A stretch of 13,819 nt of DNA, taken from NCBI GenBank assembly GCA_029974275.1, contig JARKSN010000069.1, forward strand, positions 1-13,819. Direction: 5' to 3'. The position numbers and the translations under genes are program-made. The stretch is from Candidatus Hydrogenedentota bacterium (lineage in GTDB: Bacteria > Hydrogenedentota > Hydrogenedentia > Hydrogenedentales > SLHB01). This document shows, in pieces, positions 1 through 13,819 of the stretch; position 1 is the first letter of the stretch; every line of letters starts with the position of its first letter. A model generated the notes under the pieces. It was not told the DNA's origin. It did not search any database and was given only the letters and a program-made list of their open reading frames with translations.

Positions 1-16
1 AACTACTGAAAAACAC
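1..16 (-). CDS. Possible 5' end of a gene running off the left edge (GTG start, MFFSS...)
   Basis: Minus strand reads AAGGGAG (23-29), then 6 nt, then GTG TTT TTC AGT AGT. Only 5 codons are visible. An alternative GTG at 18 is also open. Confidence 0.25.
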
Positions 17-156
17 ACGAATCTCCCTTCTTCTTTATGGGGTATGTGGGGCGGGGCGCCAACGACCAAACGAAAAGGGGAAGCAAATCACAAACGAGCC
101 AAGGTCTGCCCGGAACTCAGATTTTAATGCGATAGCCCTGCTTCCCGAGAGGATTC

Positions 157-1932
157 TCACCAGATGCCCAAGGCCGCATTGATGGCAAGCTGGACATCCA
201 AAGCGTCCACCGATCCGTCCCCGCTCAGGTCGCAATTATAGGGAACGACGTACTTGAGGGCGGCATTGATGACCAATTGCACGTCGACGATGTCAGCCGC
301 ACTGTCCCGGTCGATGTCGCCGCGGCGGAACACGTGCACCATGACGGTTGCCGTGTCCGTTGGCAAGTTTTGGTTCGTCACCGTTAACGTTGCGGTTCGG
401 GCCTGGGCGAAATCCGACGTCGATACGAGAACGCTGGCCTCGCTGGAACCGTCCTGCGGCGTCACCGTGAGCCATCCCGGCGCGCCTGCGATCTCCCAGT
501 CAAGCGCGCCGAGTTCCTGGTTGAATATCGTGAAATGCGCGGACGGCGCGGTGAGTTCGAGCGCGACATGGGCTGGATTGACGGCGACTCTTCCCGGATT
601 GGCTGGGGGTTGGTATCCCGAGTTGAGGCCTATCTGTATATCGGCCGCACCGGGGGCGTTGTTTTCGATGACGACCCCGCCTTGCATGCGGTTCATCGCC
701 ACGACTGCCTCCTTGGTGTTCGCGCCAAGCCGCACCTTCACGGAATCCTGGGTCCCCAGAAACGTGCAGCCTGTCACGATCAAGGCCCAACTATCCGACT
801 GGATCGTCGCGGCCCCTGCCCCCTCGACAGCCGCAAACGTGCAGTTGCTGAACATCGTGGCCTTTTGCTGATCGTTGCGGAACAGCAATCGGGCGATGTA
901 CGGCACGCCCGGCTCGGGCGAGAGACTGCATCCCATGAATTTCATGGGGCCTTTCTGATTGCTGCCGATTTCGATCGAGCCTTCCAGAATGCCGTTCACG
1001 AACGACCACGCTGCCGCGTCGCCCACGTCTTCGCAGAGGACTGCCGTGCGACAGCGTTTCACGGTGACATTGGTGAGCACGCCAGCGCCGGGTTGATTGT
1101 TTGTGCCGACCGGGGCCCGCCAGAAACGGAAGGCCACATGGTACGAATCCGCCTGGAGCCCGAAAGCCTGTTCTCCGTCGGTGCGCCCAAAGTCGTACGC
1201 GGTCGCGCTGGCGCGCATGAAATCGCGCACCGGACCTTGACTCCAGATGGGGCCAAGGTAAATGTTGCGCAAACGGCCGACGTCAAAACACTTGTTCACA
1301 TACACGCCCTTGCTCAACGCCTGCGCGTACAGACCGTCGATGAAGTGCCGTCCCGAATTGTTCGTGGCGAAATCCACCGCCTGATACGGGTTGATCAGCG
1401 TGACATCCACGATCGAGACGTTGTCCTCTCCCGAACCCGCGACCGTCCACGGATACGCGATCGGCGGATTGGCGTCGATTTGGTTCGGGTAAAAGACCGT
1501 AATGCGGGAAAGCGTCGCGCACATCCGCAACGTTATGAACGGTGCGCCCGCGGCGTTGCCGGCTCCTTCATAGGCCATCAGGACGCTCGCCCCGCGGCGC
1601 AGATCGTCTTGAGGCGGCGGCATGGGAGACTCGCCCTGCAACGTGACATTTTGCGGAACGGTCAGACGCGTCGCAATCGTGTATTCGCCTGCGGGAACCG
1701 TCACGATGCCGCCGTTGGCCGCGCCCGCCGCGTTGAGCGCGGTCTGAATGGCTGCCGTGTCGTCCAGGCCGTCGTTCGGGACGGCGCCATAGTCGAGGAC
1801 GTTGAAGACGCCGGGCGCGGCGGCATGCGCCGCAACGCACAGGACCCATGCGACGAGGATAAGGGAACCTATTGGTCTTTGCTTGCCCGTGCGAAGTTCT
1901 CTGCAACGATATTCTCGAAATTCCGTCTTCAT
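157..1932 (-). CDS. Secreted right-handed beta-helix protein (Pectate_lyase_3 / GH28-related) with C-terminal BACON-like Ig domain and dockerin type I-like repeat, 591 aa
   Basis: Signal peptide ending LILVAWVLCVAAHA. N-terminal motif FNVLDYGAVPNDGLDDTAAIQTALNAAGAANGGIVTVPAGEY is typical of Pectate_lyase_3 proteins. BACON-like segment LDWEIAGAPGWLTVTPQDG...ARTATLTVT (~340-590). Duplicated EF-hand-like GDIDRDSAADIVDVQLVINAAL / CDLSGDGSVDALDVQLAINAAL (160-321). ATGA overlap with the upstream stop at 1929-1932. Confidence 0.88.
   Translation of the reverse strand: MKTEFREYRCRELRTGKQRPIGSLILVAWVLCVAAHAAAPGVFNVLDYGAVPNDGLDDTAAIQTALNAAGAANGGIVTVPAGEYTIATRLTVPQNVTLQGESPMPPPQDDLRRGASVLMAYEGAGNAAGAPFITLRMCATLSRITVFYPNQIDANPPIAYPWTVAGSGEDNVSIVDVTLINPYQAVDFATNNSGRHFIDGLYAQALSKGVYVNKCFDVGRLRNIYLGPIWSQGPVRDFMRASATAYDFGRTDGEQAFGLQADSYHVAFRFWRAPVGTNNQPGAGVLTNVTVKRCRTAVLCEDVGDAAAWSFVNGILEGSIEIGSNQKGPMKFMGCSLSPEPGVPYIARLLFRNDQQKATMFSNCTFAAVEGAGAATIQSDSWALIVTGCTFLGTQDSVKVRLGANTKEAVVAMNRMQGGVVIENNAPGAADIQIGLNSGYQPPANPGRVAVNPAHVALELTAPSAHFTIFNQELGALDWEIAGAPGWLTVTPQDGSSEASVLVSTSDFAQARTATLTVTNQNLPTDTATVMVHVFRRGDIDRDSAADIVDVQLVINAALKYVVPYNCDLSGDGSVDALDVQLAINAALGIW
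160..321 (-). repeat. Dockerin-like duplicated Ca2+-binding repeat (two ~22-aa units)
   Basis: D-x-D/S-x-D-x-x-x-D-x-x-DVQLxINAAL occurs twice at the extreme C-terminus of the 591-aa protein. Confidence 0.8.
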
Positions 1933-3290
1933 CGCGATCCTTCCGGAGCGGCGGGAGCGTTGGACTTGCCCGTCCCGCCCACGTTCAGGCCAAGCTGCAC
2001 GTCGGCGGTGGGCGGGGCGTTGTTTTGGATAATGACGCCGTACCGCATGCGGTTGGCCGCGATGACGGCCTCTTCGGTGTTCGCGCCGAGTTCGATTTTG
2101 GGCTGGCCGGTGCGCGAGGCAATAAACTCGTTTCCGGTGACAATAAGCGACTTGCAGTTCGACTTGATACAGGCAGTGCCCTGCGGCGCGGCTTCCGCCA
2201 CTTTAGGGTTATCCCAGCCGCTGAATGTGCACGACTCGAACGAGACCGTGCCGCTGCCCTGGAGGTCGGCCTGCCGCCACGTGATGTAACCGTTGTTTAC
2301 GGCCGTGTCGCTGCCGATAAACACGCATCCTGTGAACTTTACGGGGCCCGTGTTGGTCGCATCCACCTGCGCGGTCGACATCGCCAAGCCGTTGACGATC
2401 GAGATGCCCGCAGCGGGATCGACCTCCTCGATCTTATATGCCAGCGGAGTAATATCGGGATACACGTTCGTATACACGCCCGAACCGGGACCGTGACCGA
2501 AATCGGCGAATTGGAACGTCGTGCTGTAGAAAATGCCGAACAAGTTCACGGCCATCTCGCCCTTTACATTGCCGAACTGATACGCGATGGCGTGGGTGCG
2601 GGTGAAGGGCCAAACGCTTCCGCCCAAGTCCCAGAACGGCCAAAAATGAATGTTTTCGATGCGGCCTCCCGGATCGCACTGATCGACGAACAAGCCTCGG
2701 TACAAGGCATGCGCATAGAGGCCGTTGATGCTGTGCAGCGGACAGGGATTGGTCCCAAAATCGACCGCCAGATAGGGGTTCACGATGGTGACATTCTTGA
2801 TCGAGCACCGCTCGCCGTTGCCGCGCACGGTCCAGGGATACGCCGTAGGCGTCGGCAACGTCTGCCCAGGATAGTAAATATTCAACCCCGAAAGGGTTGC
2901 AGAAGCGTTCAAGGTGATGAACGGCGTCCCCGACGCATTGCCCGCGCCTTCGGACGCAAGCAACGTACTGCCTGCATCGGGTGGCGCGCCCCGCGAGGGA
3001 ACGCGCCAGACGCCCTCGAGGGTCACATTGGCAGGCACGGTCAGATGGGTGGCGATGCGATACTTGCCCGCCGGAACCGTCACCACGCCGCCACCATCAT
3101 TGGCTGCCGCGTTCATGGCTGCCTGAAACGCGGCCGTATCGTCCGTCGCGCCGTTGCCTGCCGCGTTGAACGGCGCTTCGCGGACGTTGTACGTCCCATT
3201 GGCCGTCATGACGACCGGTTCGGCAGCCGAGGCCCACGATGCGATCAGTAGACCGATCGATATCCCTGTCATCCACGCACGACGCATCAC
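1929..3290 (-). CDS. Secreted right-handed beta-helix protein (Pectate_lyase_3 / GH28-related), paralog of the downstream gene, ~453 aa
   Basis: RBS GAGGAGG at 3297-3303, start GTG 3290 or ATG 3287. Signal peptide MRRAWMTGISIGLLIASWASA. Motif YNVREAPFNAAGNGATDDTAAFQAAMNAAANDGGGVVTVPAGKY. Aligns by eye over its whole length with the N-terminal ~400 aa of the 157..1932 product. Confidence 0.9.
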   Translation of the reverse strand: MMRRAWMTGISIGLLIASWASAAEPVVMTANGTYNVREAPFNAAGNGATDDTAAFQAAMNAAANDGGGVVTVPAGKYRIATHLTVPANVTLEGVWRVPSRGAPPDAGSTLLASEGAGNASGTPFITLNASATLSGLNIYYPGQTLPTPTAYPWTVRGNGERCSIKNVTIVNPYLAVDFGTNPCPLHSINGLYAHALYRGLFVDQCDPGGRIENIHFWPFWDLGGSVWPFTRTHAIAYQFGNVKGEMAVNLFGIFYSTTFQFADFGHGPGSGVYTNVYPDITPLAYKIEEVDPAAGISIVNGLAMSTAQVDATNTGPVKFTGCVFIGSDTAVNNGYITWRQADLQGSGTVSFESCTFSGWDNPKVAEAAPQGTACIKSNCKSLIVTGNEFIASRTGQPKIELGANTEEAVIAANRMRYGVIIQNNAPPTADVQLGLNVGGTGKSNAPAAPEGSR

Positions 3291-3318
3291 GATTTTCCTC
3301 CTCGTCTCAGCAGCGGGG

Positions 3319-5901
3319 TTACGGTTGAACGCCGGTTTCGTCGGTCATCTTGGCTCCTGCGGGAGCCTTGTATTCAAATTCCGTCGCGTTCACGGGAACG
3401 TCCAAGGCATAGTTGTCGAATACAAGATATCCCACGACGATTCCGCCCTCCGCCTTGGCGACGGCAAACGCAGGAAGACCTGTCTGCGGGACAATGCCAA
3501 TCGTCCAACTCCGAACGAAGGGGAACGGCGTTCCGGTGCATTTGGTAGGTTCGATGCTGATATACAAACTGGGCGTCTCATCGGGAAACGTCACGCCGGG
3601 CGGCGGCGGCGCCATGACCGTCATCACGATCTCCGCTTGGGCGCGCAGCATGCCGACAAGCGTTTGCCCACTCACCGGCAAAACGCCCAGCAGCTTTTCC
3701 GCCGGTATGCGCCGGACGGTCGTCTCGCCGCTTCCGCCGCCGGACTCGGGGCGCGTGCTTGTTTGTACGTGTCCCCGGCCATCGTTGGCGATAGCCAACA
3801 GGGAGATTTTGTTCCTTTCCGGAACGGACGCGCCTTCGCCACCTGGAGCCACGGCAGCGACTCCCGATAGTTCCAGTCGAAAGGCGCGGGCTCCCGGTCC
3901 GTTCTGGCACACAAAACGGCCGGAAGCCTCGGGAAATATTTTGGCAAAGGGGCCGTCGCCTTGGGGAATCGATTTTACGTCGCAAGAGAGCGATCGGATG
4001 GCACTCCATTGGGGCGTCACGGACGCGAGAAGCTGTGTCACATCGTCCGGCATTTCGAGCGCCTTCGCCGAGGGCGGTTCGAAGGGAGTTTCGGAATGTG
4101 GCGTCGGCCCAGGCGGCGGAACCGCCCCGTCAGGCGGCGCAGGAGGAGAATCCATTTCGGAGACCGCAACGCCTGCCGGAGGACGAAAGGTGAGATCGTC
4201 GCCGTCCACAGGGGAATTTACCACGAGTTTCGTGAGGGTATAGCCGTTGCGCAAGGCATCCGGGGCAGAATATTCGGCGCATTTCACGGGAACACCTGTC
4301 TCTTTGTCAATCCAATATCGGCGATACCGGGATTCGTCGGATCCCGAGTGGGCTGCGGGAGGCGTCTCCAAGACCCACGTATCGCGTCCATCGACCGTCT
4401 CATCCGGCGCAATCCGAAGCGTGCCCGACTGTTCCGCCTCTCCCAGCAATGGAATCGTCGCGAACAGCGGCAGACAGAACCAGTTCACGCTTTTCAATGT
4501 TCCCCGTGTGGCGGAAACGTCACGGGGTTCCTCGAACAGGGCGGGAGCGCCCTCGCCCAAGTCCGAAGGCGCGGCAGGCGTCTCGCTGATGCGCCCCATC
4601 TGTTGATACGCGTCTTGCCCGTCAAAGAGATACGTCATGCGGCTGCCATAGACTTCGCTGGGCGTCGAACGGAACACGGGATGGTCCGGGGGGGAGCCCG
4701 GCTCGCGCAGATATCCCGTGTTACGCAGCACAACATCCATGCGGAAGGCGATGCGCGATTCCAGCCGTGCAAAAAGAAACGCGCCCGATCCTTCCTTGAC
4801 GGTTCTCACCTGGCACTTGCAAATGGGATCGTCGTACACCTGAATAGCGGCCTGCACCGACCCGATTTTTTCCCACCGCGCACGCATTTCACTGAGCACG
4901 GACGAGGCATCCATGGGGATAGGGGCAGGGTCCGTCGTCGAAGGCAGGGCGAGGGGCTCGTCTTGGGTCGTTGCCGAAGCGGCGGCGGGAGGCCCGGGCG
5001 ACGACGCGGACGCATCCGAGACAAGCGCTTTCGGGGGAATTTGGTATTGGAAATGGTCCGCTGGAAACGCGGGATTCCATTCAAAATTCGAAAGAGTGAA
5101 GGCGCCGACGGGCTCTCCTCCCTCCGGATACTGTTCGAGACGAAGCAGCACGCCGCTTTCTTTGTCGAAATACAGCCGCATGCGGCTGGCCAGAGCAGGA
5201 GCTGGAATTCCTGCGAAGGCTCCTTCAAGCAGATAAGCCGGTCTTCCTGCCCACGTCGTTTCGGGCTGAACGGAAAGACGCCACCCCTGTTTTTCGAACT
5301 GATCGAACGGTTGCTCGCTCCATCCCTTCGGCAAGGGAAACACAGGGAGATTTTCCGGGGTTCCCCGGATCACCTGCGGCGAAGGCGATTCGTTTTCCGG
5401 GGATGCAGCGGAGGCGTCGTCATGAACTCGGGACTCCTGATACAAGGTTTGGCCATCAAAAAGCAGGAGGGTCTCTACCTGGGCCCGCATCTCCTCGCGG
5501 ACTGCCCCTTCGGAAGAGGAAGCGTCTTTCAGGTATGCGGACTCGATCCGCATGCCGGAAAAGCGATATTTCGCGCCAGCATCCGTCCGTGCAACATCAA
5601 GAACGCCTTGTTCCCGGAACAACGGCTGCTCCCGGCAATCGCACGGAGGGGCTTGATAGATTTCCACGCTGGCACGAAATCCTTGAAGCAGCGCGTACCG
5701 TCCGACGATTTCGGCGCGAACCATTTCGTAAGATGGACTGCGCGAGGCGGGCGCGCCGGTCGTCCCCGGGACGGCAAATTCCCCGGAACAACCGGGCAGC
5801 AGCACAAGAAGCGGCGTCCAACAGCATGCCATCAACGCATGCAACGCTCCCCGAACCGCCGTAGACCGAAAAACGCCGCGACAACGAAGCATATGTTTCA
5901 T
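3319..5901 (-). CDS. Predicted lipoprotein with three tandem LolA-like (LolA/LppX/RseB-fold, DUF2092-like) domains joined by Pro-rich linkers, 860 aa
   Basis: Start moved from 5982 to ATG 5901 (GGAGG at 5908-5912, 6-nt spacing). Lipobox-like LLVLLPG-C (Cys codon 5788-5790). LolA-like motifs recur: LLFDGQTLYQ / YLFDGQDAYQ; ETTWAGRPAYLLE / ETVDGRDTWVLE; LYFDKESGVLLR / YWIDKETGVPVK / IGIVPQTGLPAF; NPAFPADHFQYQIPPKA / NSPVDGDDLTFRPPAGV / DVPVNATEFEYKAPAGA. Confidence 0.8.
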   Translation of the reverse strand: MKHMLRCRGVFRSTAVRGALHALMACCWTPLLVLLPGCSGEFAVPGTTGAPASRSPSYEMVRAEIVGRYALLQGFRASVEIYQAPPCDCREQPLFREQGVLDVARTDAGAKYRFSGMRIESAYLKDASSSEGAVREEMRAQVETLLLFDGQTLYQESRVHDDASAASPENESPSPQVIRGTPENLPVFPLPKGWSEQPFDQFEKQGWRLSVQPETTWAGRPAYLLEGAFAGIPAPALASRMRLYFDKESGVLLRLEQYPEGGEPVGAFTLSNFEWNPAFPADHFQYQIPPKALVSDASASSPGPPAAASATTQDEPLALPSTTDPAPIPMDASSVLSEMRARWEKIGSVQAAIQVYDDPICKCQVRTVKEGSGAFLFARLESRIAFRMDVVLRNTGYLREPGSPPDHPVFRSTPSEVYGSRMTYLFDGQDAYQQMGRISETPAAPSDLGEGAPALFEEPRDVSATRGTLKSVNWFCLPLFATIPLLGEAEQSGTLRIAPDETVDGRDTWVLETPPAAHSGSDESRYRRYWIDKETGVPVKCAEYSAPDALRNGYTLTKLVVNSPVDGDDLTFRPPAGVAVSEMDSPPAPPDGAVPPPGPTPHSETPFEPPSAKALEMPDDVTQLLASVTPQWSAIRSLSCDVKSIPQGDGPFAKIFPEASGRFVCQNGPGARAFRLELSGVAAVAPGGEGASVPERNKISLLAIANDGRGHVQTSTRPESGGGSGETTVRRIPAEKLLGVLPVSGQTLVGMLRAQAEIVMTVMAPPPPGVTFPDETPSLYISIEPTKCTGTPFPFVRSWTIGIVPQTGLPAFAVAKAEGGIVVGYLVFDNYALDVPVNATEFEYKAPAGAKMTDETGVQP

Positions 5902-5981
5902 CGTAGACCTCCGGAGGCGTTCAAAAAGGCATACGCGTGCCTCTGCCCGTCTTAAGGCGTCCTCAGCGTTGTGCGAAGGCA

Positions 5982-5997
5982 AGCATACGACATGCCC
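5982..5997 (-). promoter_or_regulatory. Candidate sigma54 (-24/-12) promoter for the LolA-like / beta-helix operon
   Basis: Minus strand GGGCATGTCGTATGCT has GG (5996-5995), N10, GC (5984-5983), versus consensus TGGCACG-N4-TTGCW. It is intergenic, ~80 nt upstream of ATG 5901. Confidence 0.4.
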
Positions 5998-6005
5998 TGT
6001 TTCCA

Positions 6006-6028
6006 GGCGCGAAAGCGCCGATGTTTTT
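6006..6028. terminator. Short GC hairpin just downstream of the small ORF stop
   Basis: GGCGC-GAAA-GCGCC (6006-6019). The T-run (6024-6028) follows it on the + strand only, so it is not a canonical terminator for the minus-strand small ORF. Confidence 0.3.
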
Positions 6029-6029
6029 C

Positions 6030-6212
6030 TCAGGTCTCGGCATCCACGCCCGGATCTACATCAGGCCCTGGCGCGTTCTTCGTATTTTTGGCCGTAATGA
6101 GCGTGCTCGACAGGTAAATCAGGCTGGTCAGAAAAAGCTCAATGCCCACACCTTGGGGCTTCGTCTCTGCGCCCACGGGACGCATTTTCGATACCGGAAA
6201 GCAATGTCGCAT
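6030..6212 (-). CDS. Small protein, 60 aa: basic leader-like N-terminus, hydrophobic Ser/Thr-rich helix, acidic tail
   Basis: MRHCFPVSKMRPVGAETKPQGVGIELFLTSLIYLSSTLITAKNTKNAPGPDVDPGVDAET. SD-like GAGGGA at 6220-6225 is 7 nt from ATG 6212 (alternative ATG 6215). It has a dedicated sigma70-type promoter at 6272-6300, a hairpin after the stop, and fills an otherwise empty 370-bp gap. Confidence 0.65.
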   Translation of the reverse strand: MRHCFPVSKMRPVGAETKPQGVGIELFLTSLIYLSSTLITAKNTKNAPGPDVDPGVDAET

Positions 6213-6271
6213 CATGAAATCCCTCGCTGTCTGGGAATAAGACGCAATGTCCAATTGCCCTATCTCCATAC

Positions 6272-6300
6272 ATTCTACGAGGGGGGCGATCGAGATGCAA
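6272..6300 (-). promoter_or_regulatory. Sigma70-type promoter for the small ORF
   Basis: TTGCAT (6300-6295), 17 nt, TAGAAT (6277-6272). The predicted TSS near 6265 excludes the track's ATG at 6269. Confidence 0.65.
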
Positions 6301-6356
6301 CGAAATCTCGCTTTGTCCCTTGAAAAGAGGGCCGCATGCAGGGGAAGAACAAGCGC

Positions 6357-6707
6357 TTACGGGGCCTGGGAGCGTTCCGGGCGCTTCCATTTCCAGCCCC
6401 ATCCGTATTTGAGCCGGACATCGAGATCGCCATGGGAGACATCGGCTTCGGCTTGGACGTTGCCCTCTTTCCCAACGGTTAGATGCGGGTTGCCGCGAGC
6501 GTCATAGCGGATGGCTGTTTCCGCTTCTCCGCCCGCGTGAAACAAGATGATATCCTTGGGCGCGCGGGATGCGGCGGATCGCTTTTCGCTGTGAATTTCC
6601 TGCACCCACCCATCGGAAAACGGCGTGGCCGGAGCAGGGCCGGTCGTGCAACCGCAACCCAACGCTACAGCCAGCGGCGTCAAAAAACGTTTCCACAACG
6701 CGTCCAT
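6357..6707 (-). CDS. Hypothetical small lipoprotein, 116 aa, beta-strand-rich C-terminal half
   Basis: Start moved from 6854 to ATG 6707 (GAGGG at 6715-6719). MDALWKRFLTPLAVALGCG-C-TTG looks like a lipoprotein signal. The C-terminus has alternating strands (VQAEADVSHGDLDVRLKYGWGW). Confidence 0.7.
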   Translation of the reverse strand: MDALWKRFLTPLAVALGCGCTTGPAPATPFSDGWVQEIHSEKRSAASRAPKDIILFHAGGEAETAIRYDARGNPHLTVGKEGNVQAEADVSHGDLDVRLKYGWGWKWKRPERSQAP

Positions 6708-6747
6708 CGCGAGACCCTCATCGAGCTGGGAGGCCTCTTCTCCTTTA

Positions 6748-6753
6748 AGTATA
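6748..6753 (-). promoter_or_regulatory. Candidate -10 element for the small lipoprotein gene
   Basis: TATACT on the minus strand, 40 nt upstream of ATG 6707. There is no convincing -35, and that region is occupied by the inverted repeat at 6763-6791. Confidence 0.4.
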
Positions 6754-6762
6754 CCTCGCACA

Positions 6763-6791
6763 GCGCATCCTGGCGGAAATTTTGGATGCGC
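6763..6791. repeat. Inverted repeat in the divergent intergenic region (possible operator)
   Basis: GCGCATCC (6763-6770), 13 nt, GGATGCGC (6784-6791); perfect 8-bp arms. Confidence 0.45.
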
Positions 6792-6856
6792 CTTGCCGGT
6801 GGGGAAGGCTTTGGCCTCGTTGTCCAAGACAGGGACAAGCGTGTGCGCGCGCAAAT

Positions 6857-6885
6857 TTGCTCAAAATACAGGAATACAGTAGGAT
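6857..6885 (+). promoter_or_regulatory. Sigma70-type promoter for the radical SAM gene
   Basis: TTGCTC (6857-6862), 17 nt, TAGGAT (6880-6885). RBS AAGGAGG at 6907-6913. Confidence 0.55.
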
Positions 6886-6923
6886 GCGGTTTCGCGCATT
6901 TCGACCAAGGAGGATCCTGCGCG

Positions 6924-8333
6924 ATGAAAACAGTCCTGGTCCTGCCCCCGTACGGAATGACCCAGTCCTACGGCGGCAAGGGTTCGATGAAGCGAGGAAT
7001 TCTTCCCCCGCTGGGCATCGGTTATCTTGTGAGTTCGCTCGAAACGCACGGACACGCAGCGGCGTTTGTCGACGCGTCCGTGCTGGGCTTGGACACGGAC
7101 GGGGCGGCGACGGCCGCGCTCGCCGAAAAACCGGATGTCATCGGCATATCGTGTCTCACGCGCCTGGCCCCTGCCGCCTATGCCTTGGCGGCGGAACTCA
7201 AACGGCGTGCGCCATCCATCCCCCTTGTTCTGGGCGGTCCGCATGCCACATCTTTTGCGGACTCGATTCTGGAGGAATGTCCGGCGATCGATATTCTCAT
7301 TCCCGGCGAGGCGGAATTCACGCTCGCCGAGACTTTAGACCGTCTAGAGCGGAAAGCGCCGCTTGACGACGTGCCCGGGGTGCTGTTTCGGGCTCCGGAC
7401 GGGCGGGTTGTCGCAACGCGTCCCCGGCCCGCCGTGCGCGATTTGGATGCTTTGCCCTTCCCCGCGCGCCGCATTTATCGCAACGACCTTTACGTTCCTT
7501 TGCCGAATCAATGCCGGCGCCGCCCGGCGACCACCGTGATCACGTCGCGTGGATGTCCGTACGCGCGGTGCGCATTCTGCTATCAGGGCGGCCGCTACGC
7601 ATCCCCATATCGCAGGAGAACGCCCGAGCACGTCATCGATGAAATGGCGCAACTGAAGCGAGAGTATGGAATCCGGGAGATCATTTTTTGGGACGACAAT
7701 TTCGCGATCGATTTCGAATGGATCGACGCGTTCTGCAATCTTCTCGATCGGAACAAGATGGATATGACCTGGACGGCATATGGGCGCGTGAACACGGTGA
7801 GTCCGGAAATGTTGCAGCGCATGGCGGCTTCCGGGTGTTACAGCATTTATTACGGATTTGAATCGGGAAATTCCGAAATGCTGCAACGCGTGTGCAAGGG
7901 CATCACCCTCGACGAATGCCGCTCCGCCGTGCGGTGGGCAAAAAAAGCCGATATGGAAATTCGTGGATCATTCATCTTGGGCATGCCCGGCGAAACGCCC
8001 GAAACCGCCGAAGAAACCATTCGTTTTGCATGCGAACTCAACGTCGATTGGATGGTCTTTCTGCCATACCGTCTTCAGCCTGCGACGCGACTTGCCGAGA
8101 CGGCGCTCCGTGAGGGAGTCGTGCTTGACGATCATCCGGACATTCACTTCCCGACCTATTTGCCCAAGGGATTTCCCGACGCGGAGTCGCTTGCGAACAC
8201 GGTTCGGTCCGCATATCGGCGCTATTATTTGCGGCCGGGCTATATATCGCGCGCGCTATGGCGATCGCGCCATCCCGCTGTGTTGCGCAACTATTGGGAC
8301 TCGTTCCGGTATTGGCTCTCGCTGGTGACCTGA
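6924..8333 (+). CDS. Cobalamin (B12)-binding domain radical SAM enzyme (class B methyltransferase / BchE-like family), 469 aa
   Basis: Start moved from 6483 to ATG 6924 (AAGGAGG upstream). B12-binding domain motifs PPLGIGYL, PDVIGIS, LVLGGPHAT, GEAEFTL, DLDALPFPAR. Radical SAM motifs TSRGCPYARCAFC, FWDDNF, YGFESGNSEML, FILGMPGET. Confidence 0.92.
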   Translation: MKTVLVLPPYGMTQSYGGKGSMKRGILPPLGIGYLVSSLETHGHAAAFVDASVLGLDTDGAATAALAEKPDVIGISCLTRLAPAAYALAAELKRRAPSIPLVLGGPHATSFADSILEECPAIDILIPGEAEFTLAETLDRLERKAPLDDVPGVLFRAPDGRVVATRPRPAVRDLDALPFPARRIYRNDLYVPLPNQCRRRPATTVITSRGCPYARCAFCYQGGRYASPYRRRTPEHVIDEMAQLKREYGIREIIFWDDNFAIDFEWIDAFCNLLDRNKMDMTWTAYGRVNTVSPEMLQRMAASGCYSIYYGFESGNSEMLQRVCKGITLDECRSAVRWAKKADMEIRGSFILGMPGETPETAEETIRFACELNVDWMVFLPYRLQPATRLAETALREGVVLDDHPDIHFPTYLPKGFPDAESLANTVRSAYRRYYLRPGYISRALWRSRHPAVLRNYWDSFRYWLSLVT

Positions 8334-8384
8334 TCGGCGTCGAGCGCTTGCGAAAAAGACCGCTGCCTGGCCCAACAAGGCGCC

Positions 8385-10370
8385 TCATTCGCCCAGCAGA
8401 TTGCGTCCCTCGAAATCCGTGGGGACAATCGCCCCTAAATAGCGCAGCGCCGTCACGCCTAGATCGATAAGCGACGGGTTCTGAACGGCGATGGAACGGT
8501 TGGCGAAAAATATCCCGTGCGAGATCGTTACGTCCGAGGCGGCGTGCTCCCCGCTCCATTTGCTGGTGTTGGGCTCGAACAACTCGGGCGGAGCCGCGCC
8601 TTTCGCGGCATCCTTCGTGCTCTGGTACCCCTCCGCGTATCCGAGTTCGATATCCGGCGCATCGGCCAGTTCCGTTCCCTTGTACGCATCGCGGGTGTAT
8701 ACCGCGTTGAATATTTTTTCGCCCGTAGCGGGATCCGTTACGGCCAACAGTTTGTCGCGAATCTCTGATATCACGGCGTTGGCCTGGTCCGACGGCACAA
8801 TGCCGTTGCGCTCACGTCCTTGTTGATTCAAGAAAATGCTGCCAAGCCCGATGCTGTACGCTTGAGTGCGCGACCAGTCGTAGCCCTGCAGGAACTCTTT
8901 TTTGTTGTGCGCTGTGGCGGCGTCCGAAGAACCTTCCACGGCGAGATATCCTTGGCGCACCAGCCACGTGTTCACATTGAATCCCATGCGAAAACTGTGG
9001 AATCCATGGTCGGACAAAATCATCAGAAGATCGCCCGGGGCCAGGCGGCTCATCACGTCTCCCACGATCGCGTCCATGCGTGCATAGAAATTTTCGACGG
9101 CGCGCCCGTATTTTTTCGCGCCGTTTTCGGTGTAGAGCGGATGCTTGGAATCGCGAAAACGCCAGAACATGTGCGCGATGCGATCAGGTTCGGCCCAAAC
9201 GCTGATAAGCAAACGGAACGCGCCGCGATCCATTTCGTCGAGGGTGATCTTGCGCCGCCATTCCATCGTAGCGGCGGCGTCCGCGATGAAGGAATCTTCG
9301 TCCAGCGCGCCAACGCGCAGCGCATGGGTGTCGCTTGCCCAGCCAATCGTCTTGTATAAGCCATGCCGGTCCGCAAGTTCTCCGGCATAGGCGGGCGGCG
9401 TGCTCATGCGAATCATCGGCGCGCGCGGGTGGAACATCAGACACGTCATGTACAACCGCACGGCATTGCCCGCCTCAAGCACGTGGGCTCGGCTGATCGC
9501 CCGGACCGTGTACTGCGGCGTCACCGAGAACGACCACTCAATCCATGGCGTCTCGTTGCCTTCCGCAACGGAGAGATTCTGCCCTTGAACCGATAGCGTG
9601 ACGGTTCGCGCCTTGCGATCGACGCTCACCGTCAGCGGGACGCGCGCAAAGGCATCCCATGCGGTTGGGTTTTTCACGCGCGGATCGCGAACGCCCGGCA
9701 ACTCGACCACGGCGACGTCGTCCCGGAACGCGAGAGGCAGGCGTATGCCGCCCGCCACTTCCTCGTTCATCTCCTCTGGCGTGAATGCATCGGACATCCA
9801 AAAGAACGTGCTCTGCGTCCCCCGGATGTCGGGAACTCCAAGCCCGCACAACATGCAACTATCCGTCAGGTCGTCGGCCGGATACGCGAACGGCACCGTG
9901 AGAACCTTGCTCCGTAGCCCTTGGCGGTCCGCCGTCGCCCAAAAACTCTCCCCTTTCCGATAACTTTGAAAAGAAGCGGGCCGGGTCAAACTCCCGTCGG
10001 GGGCGAGTTCGGGCTGTTTTGTCGCGCCGAACCCAACGTCGGGCGAGTACGTCTTCGGATCGCGCCGCAGAAAATCATACACCCCATGACTGCCGGGGTT
10101 TTTGCAGGTGGTGAAGGAAGACCAGGCCGTCGGCGACTGCGGCGGATTGCTCGAACCGAGACGCGCATAGGTCCCTTGTTTGCTCAACTGCGCCAAATGC
10201 GGCAACTCGCCCGAGGCAATCATCGCGTCGACGATGGAGGGCTCAACGCCGTCAAAACCCAGGATGATCACGCGAGACGTCTCTGTCTGCGAAGAGGGTT
10301 GTCCTGCGCAGGCAGTCGAAAACAACAAAACCCACAAGGTAAAAATAGTGACTGTCATTCGCATTGTCAT
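8385..10370 (-). CDS. Secreted alkaline phosphatase superfamily protein (type I phosphodiesterase / nucleotide pyrophosphatase, COG3379-like), ~661 aa
   Basis: N-terminal signal sequence. VIILGFDG (metal Asp). SSNPPQSPTAWSSFTTCKNPGSHGVYDF (Ser nucleophile region). EPDRIAHMFW, ILSDHGF and WSGEH metal-ligand motifs. GAAGGG lies 8 nt upstream of ATG 10370. Confidence 0.9.
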   Translation of the reverse strand: MTMRMTVTIFTLWVLLFSTACAGQPSSQTETSRVIILGFDGVEPSIVDAMIASGELPHLAQLSKQGTYARLGSSNPPQSPTAWSSFTTCKNPGSHGVYDFLRRDPKTYSPDVGFGATKQPELAPDGSLTRPASFQSYRKGESFWATADRQGLRSKVLTVPFAYPADDLTDSCMLCGLGVPDIRGTQSTFFWMSDAFTPEEMNEEVAGGIRLPLAFRDDVAVVELPGVRDPRVKNPTAWDAFARVPLTVSVDRKARTVTLSVQGQNLSVAEGNETPWIEWSFSVTPQYTVRAISRAHVLEAGNAVRLYMTCLMFHPRAPMIRMSTPPAYAGELADRHGLYKTIGWASDTHALRVGALDEDSFIADAAATMEWRRKITLDEMDRGAFRLLISVWAEPDRIAHMFWRFRDSKHPLYTENGAKKYGRAVENFYARMDAIVGDVMSRLAPGDLLMILSDHGFHSFRMGFNVNTWLVRQGYLAVEGSSDAATAHNKKEFLQGYDWSRTQAYSIGLGSIFLNQQGRERNGIVPSDQANAVISEIRDKLLAVTDPATGEKIFNAVYTRDAYKGTELADAPDIELGYAEGYQSTKDAAKGAAPPELFEPNTSKWSGEHAASDVTISHGIFFANRSIAVQNPSLIDLGVTALRYLGAIVPTDFEGRNLLGE

Positions 10371-12269: not shown

Positions 12270-13031
12270 ATGCGCGTCGTATTCCTCGGAAACAATTGGG
12301 TGGGGTGGCAGGTTCTGTCGTATCTCGTCGAGCAGGGCGAAGATGTCGTCGCCGCCGTGTTGCATGCGCCGGGGAAGCGCACCTTCGAGGCGGAACTTGT
12401 CGGCGAGGCGATGCGCGAGGAGGCGCAACTCATCGGCGCGCCTGACCTGCACGCACCGGAAACGCTCGAACTTCTGCGCTCGCTCAAACCCGACATCGGC
12501 GTGTCGGCGATGTTCGACTACATCTTACGCAAACCCGTGCTGAACCTGTTTCCGCAAGGATGCCTCAATCTGCATCCCAGCTATTTGCCGTTCAACCGTG
12601 GACAGTACCCGAACGTCTGGAGCATCGTCGACGGCACGCCCGCCGGCGTCACGCTGCATTACATGGCCGAGACCATCGACACGGGCGATATCGTGGGCCA
12701 GATGGAAACACCCGTGTCGCCGTACGACACGGGAGAGACGTTGTACCGTCGGCTCGAAGAGGATTGCCTCGATCTTTTCAAAAGGACCTGGCCGTTGGTT
12801 CGCGCTGGCATGGCGCCGCGCACGCCGCAAGAACTCGACAAAGGCACGTGTCATCGCGTGCGCGACGTGGACGCTATCGATCCGATCGATCTCGATGCAA
12901 CGTATACCGCGCGCGACCTCATCAATCGCATGCGCGCACGCACGTTCCCGCCGCACTCCGGCGTCTACTATGACGTGAACGGCGAGCGCGTGTACGTGCG
13001 GGTGCAACTGTTGCGCGAGGATGAACTGTGA
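12270..13031 (+). CDS. N10-formyl-THF-dependent N-formyltransferase, probably acting on a nucleotide-linked amino sugar (VioF/Rv3404c-like rather than housekeeping Fmt), 253 aa
   Basis: Catalytic motifs CLNLHPSYLP and TLHYMAETIDTGDI. NRGQYPNVWSI replaces Fmt's YRGAAPIQ. The short C-terminal domain IDLDATYTARDLINRMRARTFPPHSGVYY...VYVRVQL resembles sugar N-formyltransferases. Confidence 0.85.
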   Translation: MRVVFLGNNWVGWQVLSYLVEQGEDVVAAVLHAPGKRTFEAELVGEAMREEAQLIGAPDLHAPETLELLRSLKPDIGVSAMFDYILRKPVLNLFPQGCLNLHPSYLPFNRGQYPNVWSIVDGTPAGVTLHYMAETIDTGDIVGQMETPVSPYDTGETLYRRLEEDCLDLFKRTWPLVRAGMAPRTPQELDKGTCHRVRDVDAIDPIDLDATYTARDLINRMRARTFPPHSGVYYDVNGERVYVRVQLLREDEL

Positions 13032-13819
13032 TGGATGATGCGACGCGCGCGGCACTTGCTCGACAGTTGGGTTATGTCATCGCCCATAGTCCGCTGTACC
13101 AAGCGAAATTCGCCGGATTGCGTGTCGATACGGAGTCGCTTTACGCGCTTCCGTTCACGGAGAAAGACGACGTCCTCGCGGACCAGGCGCAGCAGCCGCC
13201 CTTCGGCGCCAACCTCTGTGTCGATCCGTCGCGCGTGCAACGTGTCCAAAAAACCTCTGGCACGTCCGCGTGTCCCGTGTTCATCGCCTTGACGGCGCAC
13301 GACATCGAACGGACAGTCGAGACAGGTGCGCGCTGTTTTACTTCGGCGGGTCTGCGCCCCGACGACACCGTTGTCCACTGTCTCAATTACTGCCTCTGGA
13401 TGGGCGGTTACACGGACCACCAGAGTCTCGAACGCACCGGTGCGACGGTCGTGCCGTATGGCGTGGGCAATACAGCGGGACTCATCGACGCCATCCGCAC
13501 GTTACGCGTTACCGCGCTTCACTGCACGCCCTCGTACCTTGCCAAGCTTGAGACGGTCCTCGACCAAGAATTCGCCATGTCGCCGCGCGATCTGGGTCTT
13601 CGCATCGGGCTTTTCGCGGGCGAGGGCGGTCTGCAATCGCCGGAATTCCGCCGGCGCATCGAGGAGACATGGGGCATGATCCCTGTCAACGCGAATTACG
13701 GCGTATCCGAGGCGCTCAGCATGATCGCCGGGGAAGACGCGTCGCGCAACGGTCTACGCTTCATGGCCGATGGCGTGTTGCTGCCGGAACTGATCGACCC
13801 CGAGACGGGCGCCGTGCTG
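13031..13819 (+). CDS. Phenylacetate-CoA ligase / coenzyme F390 synthetase-like adenylate-forming enzyme, 3'-truncated by the window edge (263 codons visible)
   Basis: Not in the ORF track because there is no stop. Manual translation from ATG 13031 (TGATG overlap) gives MDDATRAALARQLGYVIAHSPLYQAKF...LPFTEKDDV...KTSGTSACP...AGLRPDDTV...LNYCLWMGG...GATVVPYGVGNT...LHCTPSYL...FAGEGG...RRRIEETWG...NYGVSE...LPELIDPETG. Confidence 0.88.
   Translation, partial: MDDATRAALARQLGYVIAHSPLYQAKFAGLRVDTESLYALPFTEKDDVLADQAQQPPFGANLCVDPSRVQRVQKTSGTSACPVFIALTAHDIERTVETGARCFTSAGLRPDDTVVHCLNYCLWMGGYTDHQSLERTGATVVPYGVGNTAGLIDAIRTLRVTALHCTPSYLAKLETVLDQEFAMSPRDLGLRIGLFAGEGGLQSPEFRRRIEETWGMIPVNANYGVSEALSMIAGEDASRNGLRFMADGVLLPELIDPETGAVL

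Follow-up and report, generated by a model that had tools for sequence, protein, structure and literature searches.

A three-domain protein of LolA-like units, probably lipid-anchored, in one lineage of Hydrogenedentota

The P0002 gene and its three units

The 13,819-nt stretch of Candidatus Hydrogenedentota bacterium DNA analysed here (assembly GCA_029974275.1, contig JARKSN010000069.1; hereafter the window, with a G+C content of ~60%) carries on its reverse strand a long single open reading frame (ORF), P0002. Behind a signal peptide and a short tether, its product consists of three LolA-like units of ~240 residues (U1, U2 and U3) that are separated by two linkers (Table 1). P0002 thus combines a known domain family with a rare architecture, being the fused three-domain version of what in its relatives is a single-domain protein. 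LolA-fold domains are the standard bacterial means of shielding acyl chains that move through the periplasm and, to our knowledge, characterised examples contain one such domain per protein.

Table 1 Features of the P0002 locus and of one array of separate genes in a relative, with amino-acid differences between P0002 and P0159 and the ratio of non-synonymous to synonymous substitution rates (dN/dS) between the window gene and its copy on contig L041
Feature	Position (nt)	Strand	Extent in protein	Basis or remark	Amino-acid differences	dN/dS
P0002, whole gene	3319..5901	-	860 aa plus stop	single ORF		
GGAGG ribosome-binding site	5908..5912	-		read from sequence; 6 nt ahead of ATG 5901-5899		
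Signal peptide	5791..5901	-	aa 1-37	read from translation		
Cys38, putative lipidated Cys of LLPG-C	5788..5790	-	aa 38	read from translation		
N-terminal tether, SGEFAVPGTTGAPASRSPS	5731..5787	-	aa 39-57 (19 aa)	translation		
U1, LolA-like domain 1	5014..5730	-	aa 58-296	hhalign to family profile	9/239	0.21
Linker 1	4909..5013	-	aa 297-331	composition; Pro/Ala/Ser/Thr fraction 0.71	11/35	0.76
U2, LolA-like domain 2	4153..4908	-	aa 332-583	hhalign, AlphaFold 2 (AF2) model, Foldseek	4/252	0.19
Linker 2	4048..4152	-	aa 584-618	composition; Pro/Ala/Ser/Thr fraction 0.63	6/35	0.70
U3, most diverged LolA-like domain	3322..4047	-	aa 619-860	hhalign, AF2 model, Foldseek	2/242	0.07
Secreted beta-helix protein (PF12708)	1929..3290	-		starts 29 nt after P0002 stop		
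Paralogous beta-helix protein that also carries BACON and dockerin	157..1932	-		4-nt overlap with 1929..3290 gene		
B12-binding radical S-adenosylmethionine (SAM) gene	6483-8333	+	616 aa	divergent, upstream of P0002		
Three-gene array L037 (G103:C159, in a relative)	3320-4060, 4057-5136, 5133-5924	-		each gene with own signal peptide		

The longest possible reading of the P0002 frame opens at a TTG (position 5982). We place the start at the ATG behind the ribosome-binding site, and the 861-aa protein recorded from another assembly has the same start. An Rfam scan of the window found no RNA family, and over positions 1-6900 a scan for sigma-70-type promoters found none and terminator-like sites did not rise above a shuffled background. 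The listed holders of the gene are metagenomes from wastewater, activated sludge and anaerobic digesters, and no RNA dataset is among them.

The boundaries originally predicted for the three units proved sound, as did the description of the linkers, both of which are 35 residues long and rich in Pro, Ala, Ser and Thr. The expectation that U1 and U2 would be clearly similar and U3 more diverged was likewise borne out by BLASTP: U1 and U2 match over nearly their full length (E = 6e-16, 23% identity), whereas U3 matches U1 and U2 with its C-terminus, the C-terminal strand, alone (E = 8e-4 and 0.025, respectively). Residues that are near-invariant in the family are nonetheless kept in all three units, namely R113/R387/R675, a D-G pair, G250/G536/G808 and P289/P575/P847 (in the order U1/U2/U3). 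The motifs put forward in the original prediction stand in part. The near-invariant Gly sits in a turn of the DKETG type, although the U3 turn (V-P-Q-T-G-L-P) lies one residue out of register with D-K-E-S/T-G, and the closing F-x-Y/F-x-x-P motif is present with its Pro in every unit and with F284 and F842 in U1 and U3, but begins in U2 with L570, Leu replacing Phe.

U1 and U2 also possess Pro/Ala/Ser-rich insertions and a Cys-x-Cys (CxC) motif, formed by C87/C89 in U1 (nt 5635-5643, reverse strand) and C361/C363 in U2 (nt 4813-4821, reverse strand), which U3 lacks. The motif (PPCDC, PICKC, FPCDC) is confined to U1, U2 and a single-domain paralog encoded in the same genome, in each case within the loop that follows strand one; these make up three of 121 aligned rows, and the other 118 are without it. 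The motif is a possible periplasmic disulfide or metal-binding site.

At the N-terminus, P0002 starts MKHMLRCRGVFRSTAVRGALHALMACCWTPLLVLLPG-C38, with a basic n-region (five basic residues within aa 2-17) that leads into a hydrophobic core and then into LLPGC, a lipobox-like site whose LLPG closes the signal peptide. The bacterial lipobox that serves the Sec/SPII route has the consensus [LVI][ASTVI][GAS]-C. In L-P-G-C38 the L at -3 and the G at -1 fit this consensus and the Pro at -2 is atypical. The originally predicted lipobox-like LPG-C is thus present, behind a putative signal peptide, and departs from the consensus at this one position. Because of this Pro, we regard lipidation of P0002 as plausible rather than established. 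Five of the seven closest single-domain relatives bear a lipobox-like Cys, at a site of the standard type, in their N-terminal 30 residues, and in these five a Pro/Ala-rich stretch of tens of residues separates that Cys from the domain. Furthermore, lspA and lgt lie side by side in the genome that encodes P0002. Judged by its sequence, P0002 is probably an envelope protein with an N-terminal lipid anchor.

Family assignment and predicted fold

To place the units we used a family profile (A4) of 109 single-domain proteins from an exhaustive HMMER search, from which the window sequences and the closest clade were left out. By hhalign this profile matches all three units along their full length: U1 at 99.5% (E = 4.4e-22, 227 columns), U2 at 99.5% (E = 6.1e-23, 221 columns) and U3 at 97.7% (97.7-97.8% over two comparisons; E = 2e-12, 216 columns). 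As each unit matches the independent profile in its own right, the three-fold repeat lies far beyond chance. The profile members themselves are matched (E <= 1e-3) by the Pfam families LolA_like PF17131 (84 of the 109), MucB_RseB PF03888 (30), DUF2092 (11), DUF1571 (10), DUF1329 (8) and LolA (7), and a comparison of the profile with the PDB returned 3bk5 (5e-11), 4z48 (8e-11), P. gingivalis LolA3 (9tp6, 9e-9), MucB (1.6e-6) and LolA (2e-6).

A search of each unit against Pfam, as suggested in the original prediction, gave a divided result. Matches to DUF1571 (26.5 bits against a cut-off of 27), LolA_like (24.3 against 30) and MucB_RseB (21.3 against 22.3) were found, all of them sub-threshold and all on U2, whereas U1 and U3 scanned singly gave no match up to E = 10. 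The NCBIfam model lolA TIGR00547 has a sub-threshold match at the end of U1 (aa 266-295), with 23.7 bits against a cut-off of 112. P0002 does not reach the PF17131 gathering threshold and, on these scores, its units are divergent relatives of that family and not formal members of it.

Two narrower identities were considered and rejected. The first, canonical LolA (the TIGR00547 equivalog or PF03548), is ruled out by the TIGR00547 score and by the separate PF03548 genes of the genome. The second, membership of RseB/MucB, fails in that PF03888 stays below its cut-off and that the Pfam scan shows no family for the C-terminal domain.

Whole-protein alignment A1 placed every homolog on U1, for which reason U2 and U3 were folded separately by AlphaFold, each with 120-121 aligned sequences. 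The U2 model has a mean predicted local distance difference test (pLDDT) of 88.1 and a predicted template modelling score (pTM) of 0.85. Its best Foldseek match is E. coli LolA (E = 3e-9), followed by RseB, MucB, LprG, VioE and LolA3, and in VIA-align the RseB N-domain (Z 14.6, root mean square deviation (rmsd) 3.6 A over 180 residues) and E. coli LolA (6f3z_B, Z 14.3) are tied. The U3 model (mean pLDDT 86.0, pTM 0.84) finds LolA by Foldseek (E = 2.4e-8) and Yersinia LolA by VIA-align (Z 15.5, rmsd 2.9 A, 174/179 residues aligned), the first 12 rows of the latter all being LolA. By these matches, the predicted models of both units have the unclosed antiparallel beta-barrel with internal plug helices, in keeping with the original prediction that they would model as LolA-like half-barrels. 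Taking the profile matches of all three units together with the predicted folds of U2 and U3, we assign U1, U2 and U3 to the LolA superfamily.

The tie in the structural scores of U2 brings up the possibility that P0002 senses or regulates envelope stress in the manner of RseB/MucB, in which case its domains would bind mislocalised lipid or lipopolysaccharide together with a partner protein, and would ferry nothing. The N-terminal domain of RseB, which has the same fold as U2, is the top structural match of that unit; MucB_RseB is among the sub-threshold Pfam matches of P0002, and PF03888 is matched by the share of family members given above. However, the U2 scores to RseB and LolA lie within 1 Z unit of each other and the top 12 structural matches of U3 are all LolA. 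RseB is moreover distinguished by a separate C-terminal domain and an anti-sigma partner, neither of which is seen for P0002: the Pfam scan detected no RseB C-terminal domain, and among the scanned window ORFs there is no gene for an extracytoplasmic function (ECF) sigma factor or an anti-sigma factor. We consider a sensor of this kind distinctly improbable.

By sequence, the closest family is PF17131 LolA_like (represented by 3bk5 and LolA3 9tp6), whose members share with the P0002 units the ~240-aa size and the half-barrel with plug helices; they are single-domain proteins, whereas P0002 places three such domains in one chain behind a lipobox-like site and has CxC motifs in two of them. LolA itself resembles the units in predicted fold (U3 Z 15.5 to the Yersinia protein, U2 Z 14.3 to that of E. 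coli) and shares the C-terminal strand motif, yet it is a soluble, single-domain, essential chaperone, and three-domain P0002 falls far short of the lolA cut-off. More comparable in their attachment are the mycobacterial LprG, LppX and LprF and the proteobacterial LolB, which are lipid-anchored, as P0002 probably is, and bind acylated ligands in a single LolA-fold domain. Structural matches of the units to these proteins (LprG Z 10.7, LppX Z 10.4, LolB Z 9.8-10.3) have no counterpart at the sequence level, and they differ from P0002 in having one domain rather than three and in that their ligands are known. For P. gingivalis LolA3, one study reports no pairing with LolB and proposes a separate role (PMC13103446).

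Rarity, authenticity and origin of the fusion

Word-indexed searches returned nothing but P0002 itself for the whole protein and nothing at E <= 0.01 for U3 alone. With the complete P0002 as query, exhaustive phmmer searching of 1.84 billion representatives found 177 proteins at E <= 1e-3; the 149 others that were listed range in length from 95 to 482 aa, and for none of them is U3 the best-matching region. When longer proteins were sought with the family profile (among a limited set of 7,999 candidates, which is weak evidence), P0002 was joined only by six LolA-like/thioredoxin fusions of 689-693 aa. In these six (P0153-P0158), a LolA-like domain is joined to thioredoxin-family domains (PF00085, PF08534, PF13905). 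A search of the ESM Atlas yielded single-domain LolA-clan clusters of 198-292 aa only.

Within the phylum Hydrogenedentota, the family profile matches 108 of the 135 GTDB genomes, in frames that are almost always 225-450 aa long. Among the matches listed (31 were unlisted), several family matches in one frame occur in this genome and in none of the other 134, and five long frames of relatives that have a family match (529-2,696 aa) contain one domain apiece. Full-text literature searches, in turn, brought up no account of a single chain with several LolA-like domains. The searches of sequences, genomes and literature therefore agree with the original prediction that the architecture is without a characterised precedent, having found no other multi-domain chain of the LolA-like family, and the fused form does not extend beyond a single species-level lineage, sampled from wastewater and digesters.

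In relatives, separate single-domain genes do lie side by side, two or three to an array, and an assembly chimera, or a read-through joining three separate genes, could mimic a protein such as P0002. However, the translation shows no stop across 860 codons and no signal peptides belonging to U2 and U3 themselves, and the same fused ORF recurs in another metagenome-assembled genome and on metagenome contig L041. The former copy (P0159, 861 aa) lies on a 101-kb contig labelled Candidatus Hydrogenedentota by its source and is 96% identical to P0002. Contig L041 aligns collinearly with 9.4 kb of the window (97.6% DNA identity), and its protein was the one full-length relative (96% identity) in the metagenome scan, beside two short partial matches. 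The 90% cluster of P0002 has six members from several sources. In addition, Logan contigs from four runs of four studies, placed on window positions 3200-6000, bridge linker 2 in all four runs and linker 1 in three of the four, and the one indel that they show within the coding sequence, 3 nt inserted into linker 1 in one metagenome, keeps the reading frame. The fused three-domain form is genuine and present in independent assemblies, and a chimera is refuted as far as assemblies can show, leaving it next to no likelihood.

Comparison of the copies further indicates how the parts of the protein evolve. All three domains are under purifying selection, and the linkers are near-neutral (Table 1). 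U3 is the unit most diverged from the family, yet the most constrained of the three.

In a quick IQ-TREE analysis of 72 rows (14 domains taken from the loci and, from A2, the first 58 database rows), U1 and U2 form a clade with the single-domain paralog of the same genome and six other single-domain proteins (Shimodaira-Hasegawa-like approximate likelihood-ratio test (SH-aLRT) support of 100). The paralog (G000:C158, L002:1279-2259 (+)) is 326 aa long and 32% identical to U1. The closest relatives hold a module of tether plus domain once, directly behind the lipoprotein Cys. Judged from these sequences, the likeliest and simplest history of P0002 is that this lipoprotein module, a "Pro/Ala-rich tether + LolA-like domain", was multiplied in frame or fused within one Hydrogenedentota lineage, in which case the inter-domain linkers would be former tethers.

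An unfused parallel to P0002 is the array of G103:C159, where three adjacent single-domain LolA-like genes overlap by 4 nt. It belongs to the same family and has the same copy number as P0002, but consists of separate genes with their own signal peptides. Because the arrays of G103 and G040 form a clade of their own, apart from that of U1 and U2, they represent an independent expansion and not a precursor of P0002. Two-gene LolA-like arrays occur at G040:C92, G024:C263, G031:C231, G102:C21 and G037:C1. The G040:C92 pair (L023; 3267-4514 (+) and 3922-4755 (+)) has further peculiarities: its second LolA-like gene carries a Pro/Ala/Glu-rich tail of ~180 aa that is mostly repetitive (PEAAAPPAEAA-type units), and immediately beyond this gene a different frame encodes the C-terminal portion of one more LolA-like domain (E = 7e-5). 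This locus may represent a two-domain form that has been frameshifted or is in decay.

Neighbouring genes and possible functions

Two paralogous genes for secreted right-handed beta-helix proteins follow P0002 on the same strand, and the short gap and the overlap between these genes (Table 1) suggest one transcript; the second strain (L041) shows the same gene order up to the end of its contig. A potential explanation for this association is that P0002 serves as a membrane-anchored scaffold or chaperone for the two secreted beta-helix (pectate-lyase-like) enzymes and has no lipid role. However, the PF12708 family is multi-copy, with eight matches in this genome, and its genes often lie in adjacent pairs across the phylum, including pairs on contigs without a listed LolA-like match (G000:C284, G000:C99, G019:C1, G019:C35 and G119:C574). 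Lists of beta-helix and LolA-like locations were compared by eye (124 and 31 matches, respectively, being unlisted) and, among the matches listed, the pairing was not seen elsewhere in the phylum; the neighbours of the single-domain relatives also differ between loci. Given that the beta-helix family is multi-copy and paired elsewhere without a listed LolA-like match, its pairing with P0002 is probably incidental, and a role as scaffold for these enzymes seems unlikely.

No conserved gene context emerged, since the neighbours of paralogs and relatives vary by locus and include genes for an amidase, a CN-hydrolase, a type II secretion system ATPase, an Ig-like surface protein, an Opp permease, PIG-L, GT2 and PhyH proteins, and others. 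Upstream of P0002, the divergent radical SAM gene encodes a protein whose ~170 N-terminal residues are without a Pfam match, and whose scores to the NCBIfam models HpnJ, ApyD and BchE are far below their cut-offs. Further upstream lie genes for a type I phosphodiesterase, a sigma-54 activator, a formyltransferase and an AMP-binding enzyme. The formyltransferase is an N-formyltransferase of the sugar type (Formyl_trans_N + N_formyltrans_C; 12270-13031, +), and its gene overlaps by 4 nt that of the AMP-binding enzyme (13028-13819, +), which runs past the window end; the two may form a small modification operon.

The genome encodes housekeeping Lol components apart from P0002, with two PF03548 LolA matches (53.6 and 50.1 bits) and one LolC/E match, all above their cut-offs. 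LolB (PF03550) gave no match at E <= 0.01 in this genome, which is 100% complete, although in a control PF03550 matched only 1 of 14 genomes, LolB being undetectable by Pfam in most phyla. On another contig of the genome (G000:C23), a LolA-like C-terminal match (6135-6278, -) in a 533-aa frame is found ~1.9 kb from a LolC/E-like FtsX-type permease match (8189-9337, -), and the two could belong to a LolA-like/ATP-binding cassette (ABC) exporter cluster.

We favour, with a probability of about 0.6, the reading that P0002 is an exported and probably lipid-anchored protein of three LolA half-barrels on flexible linkers, which arose by multiplication of a module and acts as an accessory binder or carrier with three sites for hydrophobic ligands. 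Under this reading, the three domains would hang from the membrane anchor as beads on two flexible linkers of ~35 residues, each binding a hydrophobic ligand of the acyl-chain type in its cavity, as fold and family lead us to infer. P0002 would then be a tethered three-site binder or carrier of periplasmic lipids or lipidated molecules, accessory to the housekeeping Lol pathway and not part of it. The carrying of hydrophobic ligands by these domains is argued by analogy with the fold and the family.

A bolder alternative is the relay or bridge originally suggested for this protein, in which an acylated ligand would pass mouth-to-mouth from the membrane-proximal to the distal domain, the chain spanning the periplasm and replacing a soluble carrier or a LolB-type acceptor. 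A precedent is offered by LolA, which, as described in two studies, hands lipoproteins to LolB mouth-to-mouth, both being domains of the LolA fold (PMC13103446, PMC13078400). Flexible linkers would let neighbouring domains meet, U3 is strongly unlike U1 and U2, a contrast that might also hold between an acceptor and a donor, and no LolB is detected in the complete genome. Nevertheless, the weight of that absence is reduced by the control described above, the genome retains its LolA-type and LolC/E genes, and the gene context is not conserved. The fusion is, furthermore, restricted to one species-level lineage and absent from the other 134 genomes of the phylum among the matches listed, from which it follows that a relay would not be a general envelope solution. 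We therefore hold a relay to be doubtful. The same low standing applies to a more specific "bucket brigade", self-contained and anchored in the membrane, in which acylated cargo, either lipoprotein or lipid, would be handed from domain to domain over the periplasm and the distal U3, diverged yet the most strongly conserved unit, would act as a LolB-like acceptor or inserter where no LolB is detectable. As the fusion occurs in one lineage only, while relatives use separate single-domain genes, a lineage-specific fusion of paralogous binding modules fits better than a new transport principle.

Several points weigh against the accessory three-site binder that we favour. With a Pro at lipobox position -2, signal peptidase I might process P0002, or the signal might stay in place as an anchor instead. 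Every Pfam and NCBIfam match on P0002 itself is below the curated cut-off; U1 is assigned to the LolA fold by sequence (hhalign 99.5%; BLASTP to U2, E = 6e-16), and the U3 model was built from distant family members, so that alignment bias towards the family fold may have shaped it. The LolA fold is also found in non-carriers, and both the enzyme VioE and the sensor RseB are among the structural matches. The tree is a quick one that leaves U3 unplaced on a very long branch (3.15), and the dN/dS values derive from few changes, 72 in the whole gene, though their trend is consistent across regions.

The practical value of P0002 is limited, given that it comes from an uncultured organism and from one wastewater/digester lineage, and that its gene context indicates no ligand or partner. 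Its interest lies rather in the architecture. If the origin proposed here is correct, P0002 shows that the disordered tether of a lipoprotein can be reused as an inter-domain linker. Moreover, a natural chain of three conserved LolA-like domains raises the question of how such domains may cooperate, whether through avidity, through a division of labour among ligands, or through hand-over from one domain to the next.

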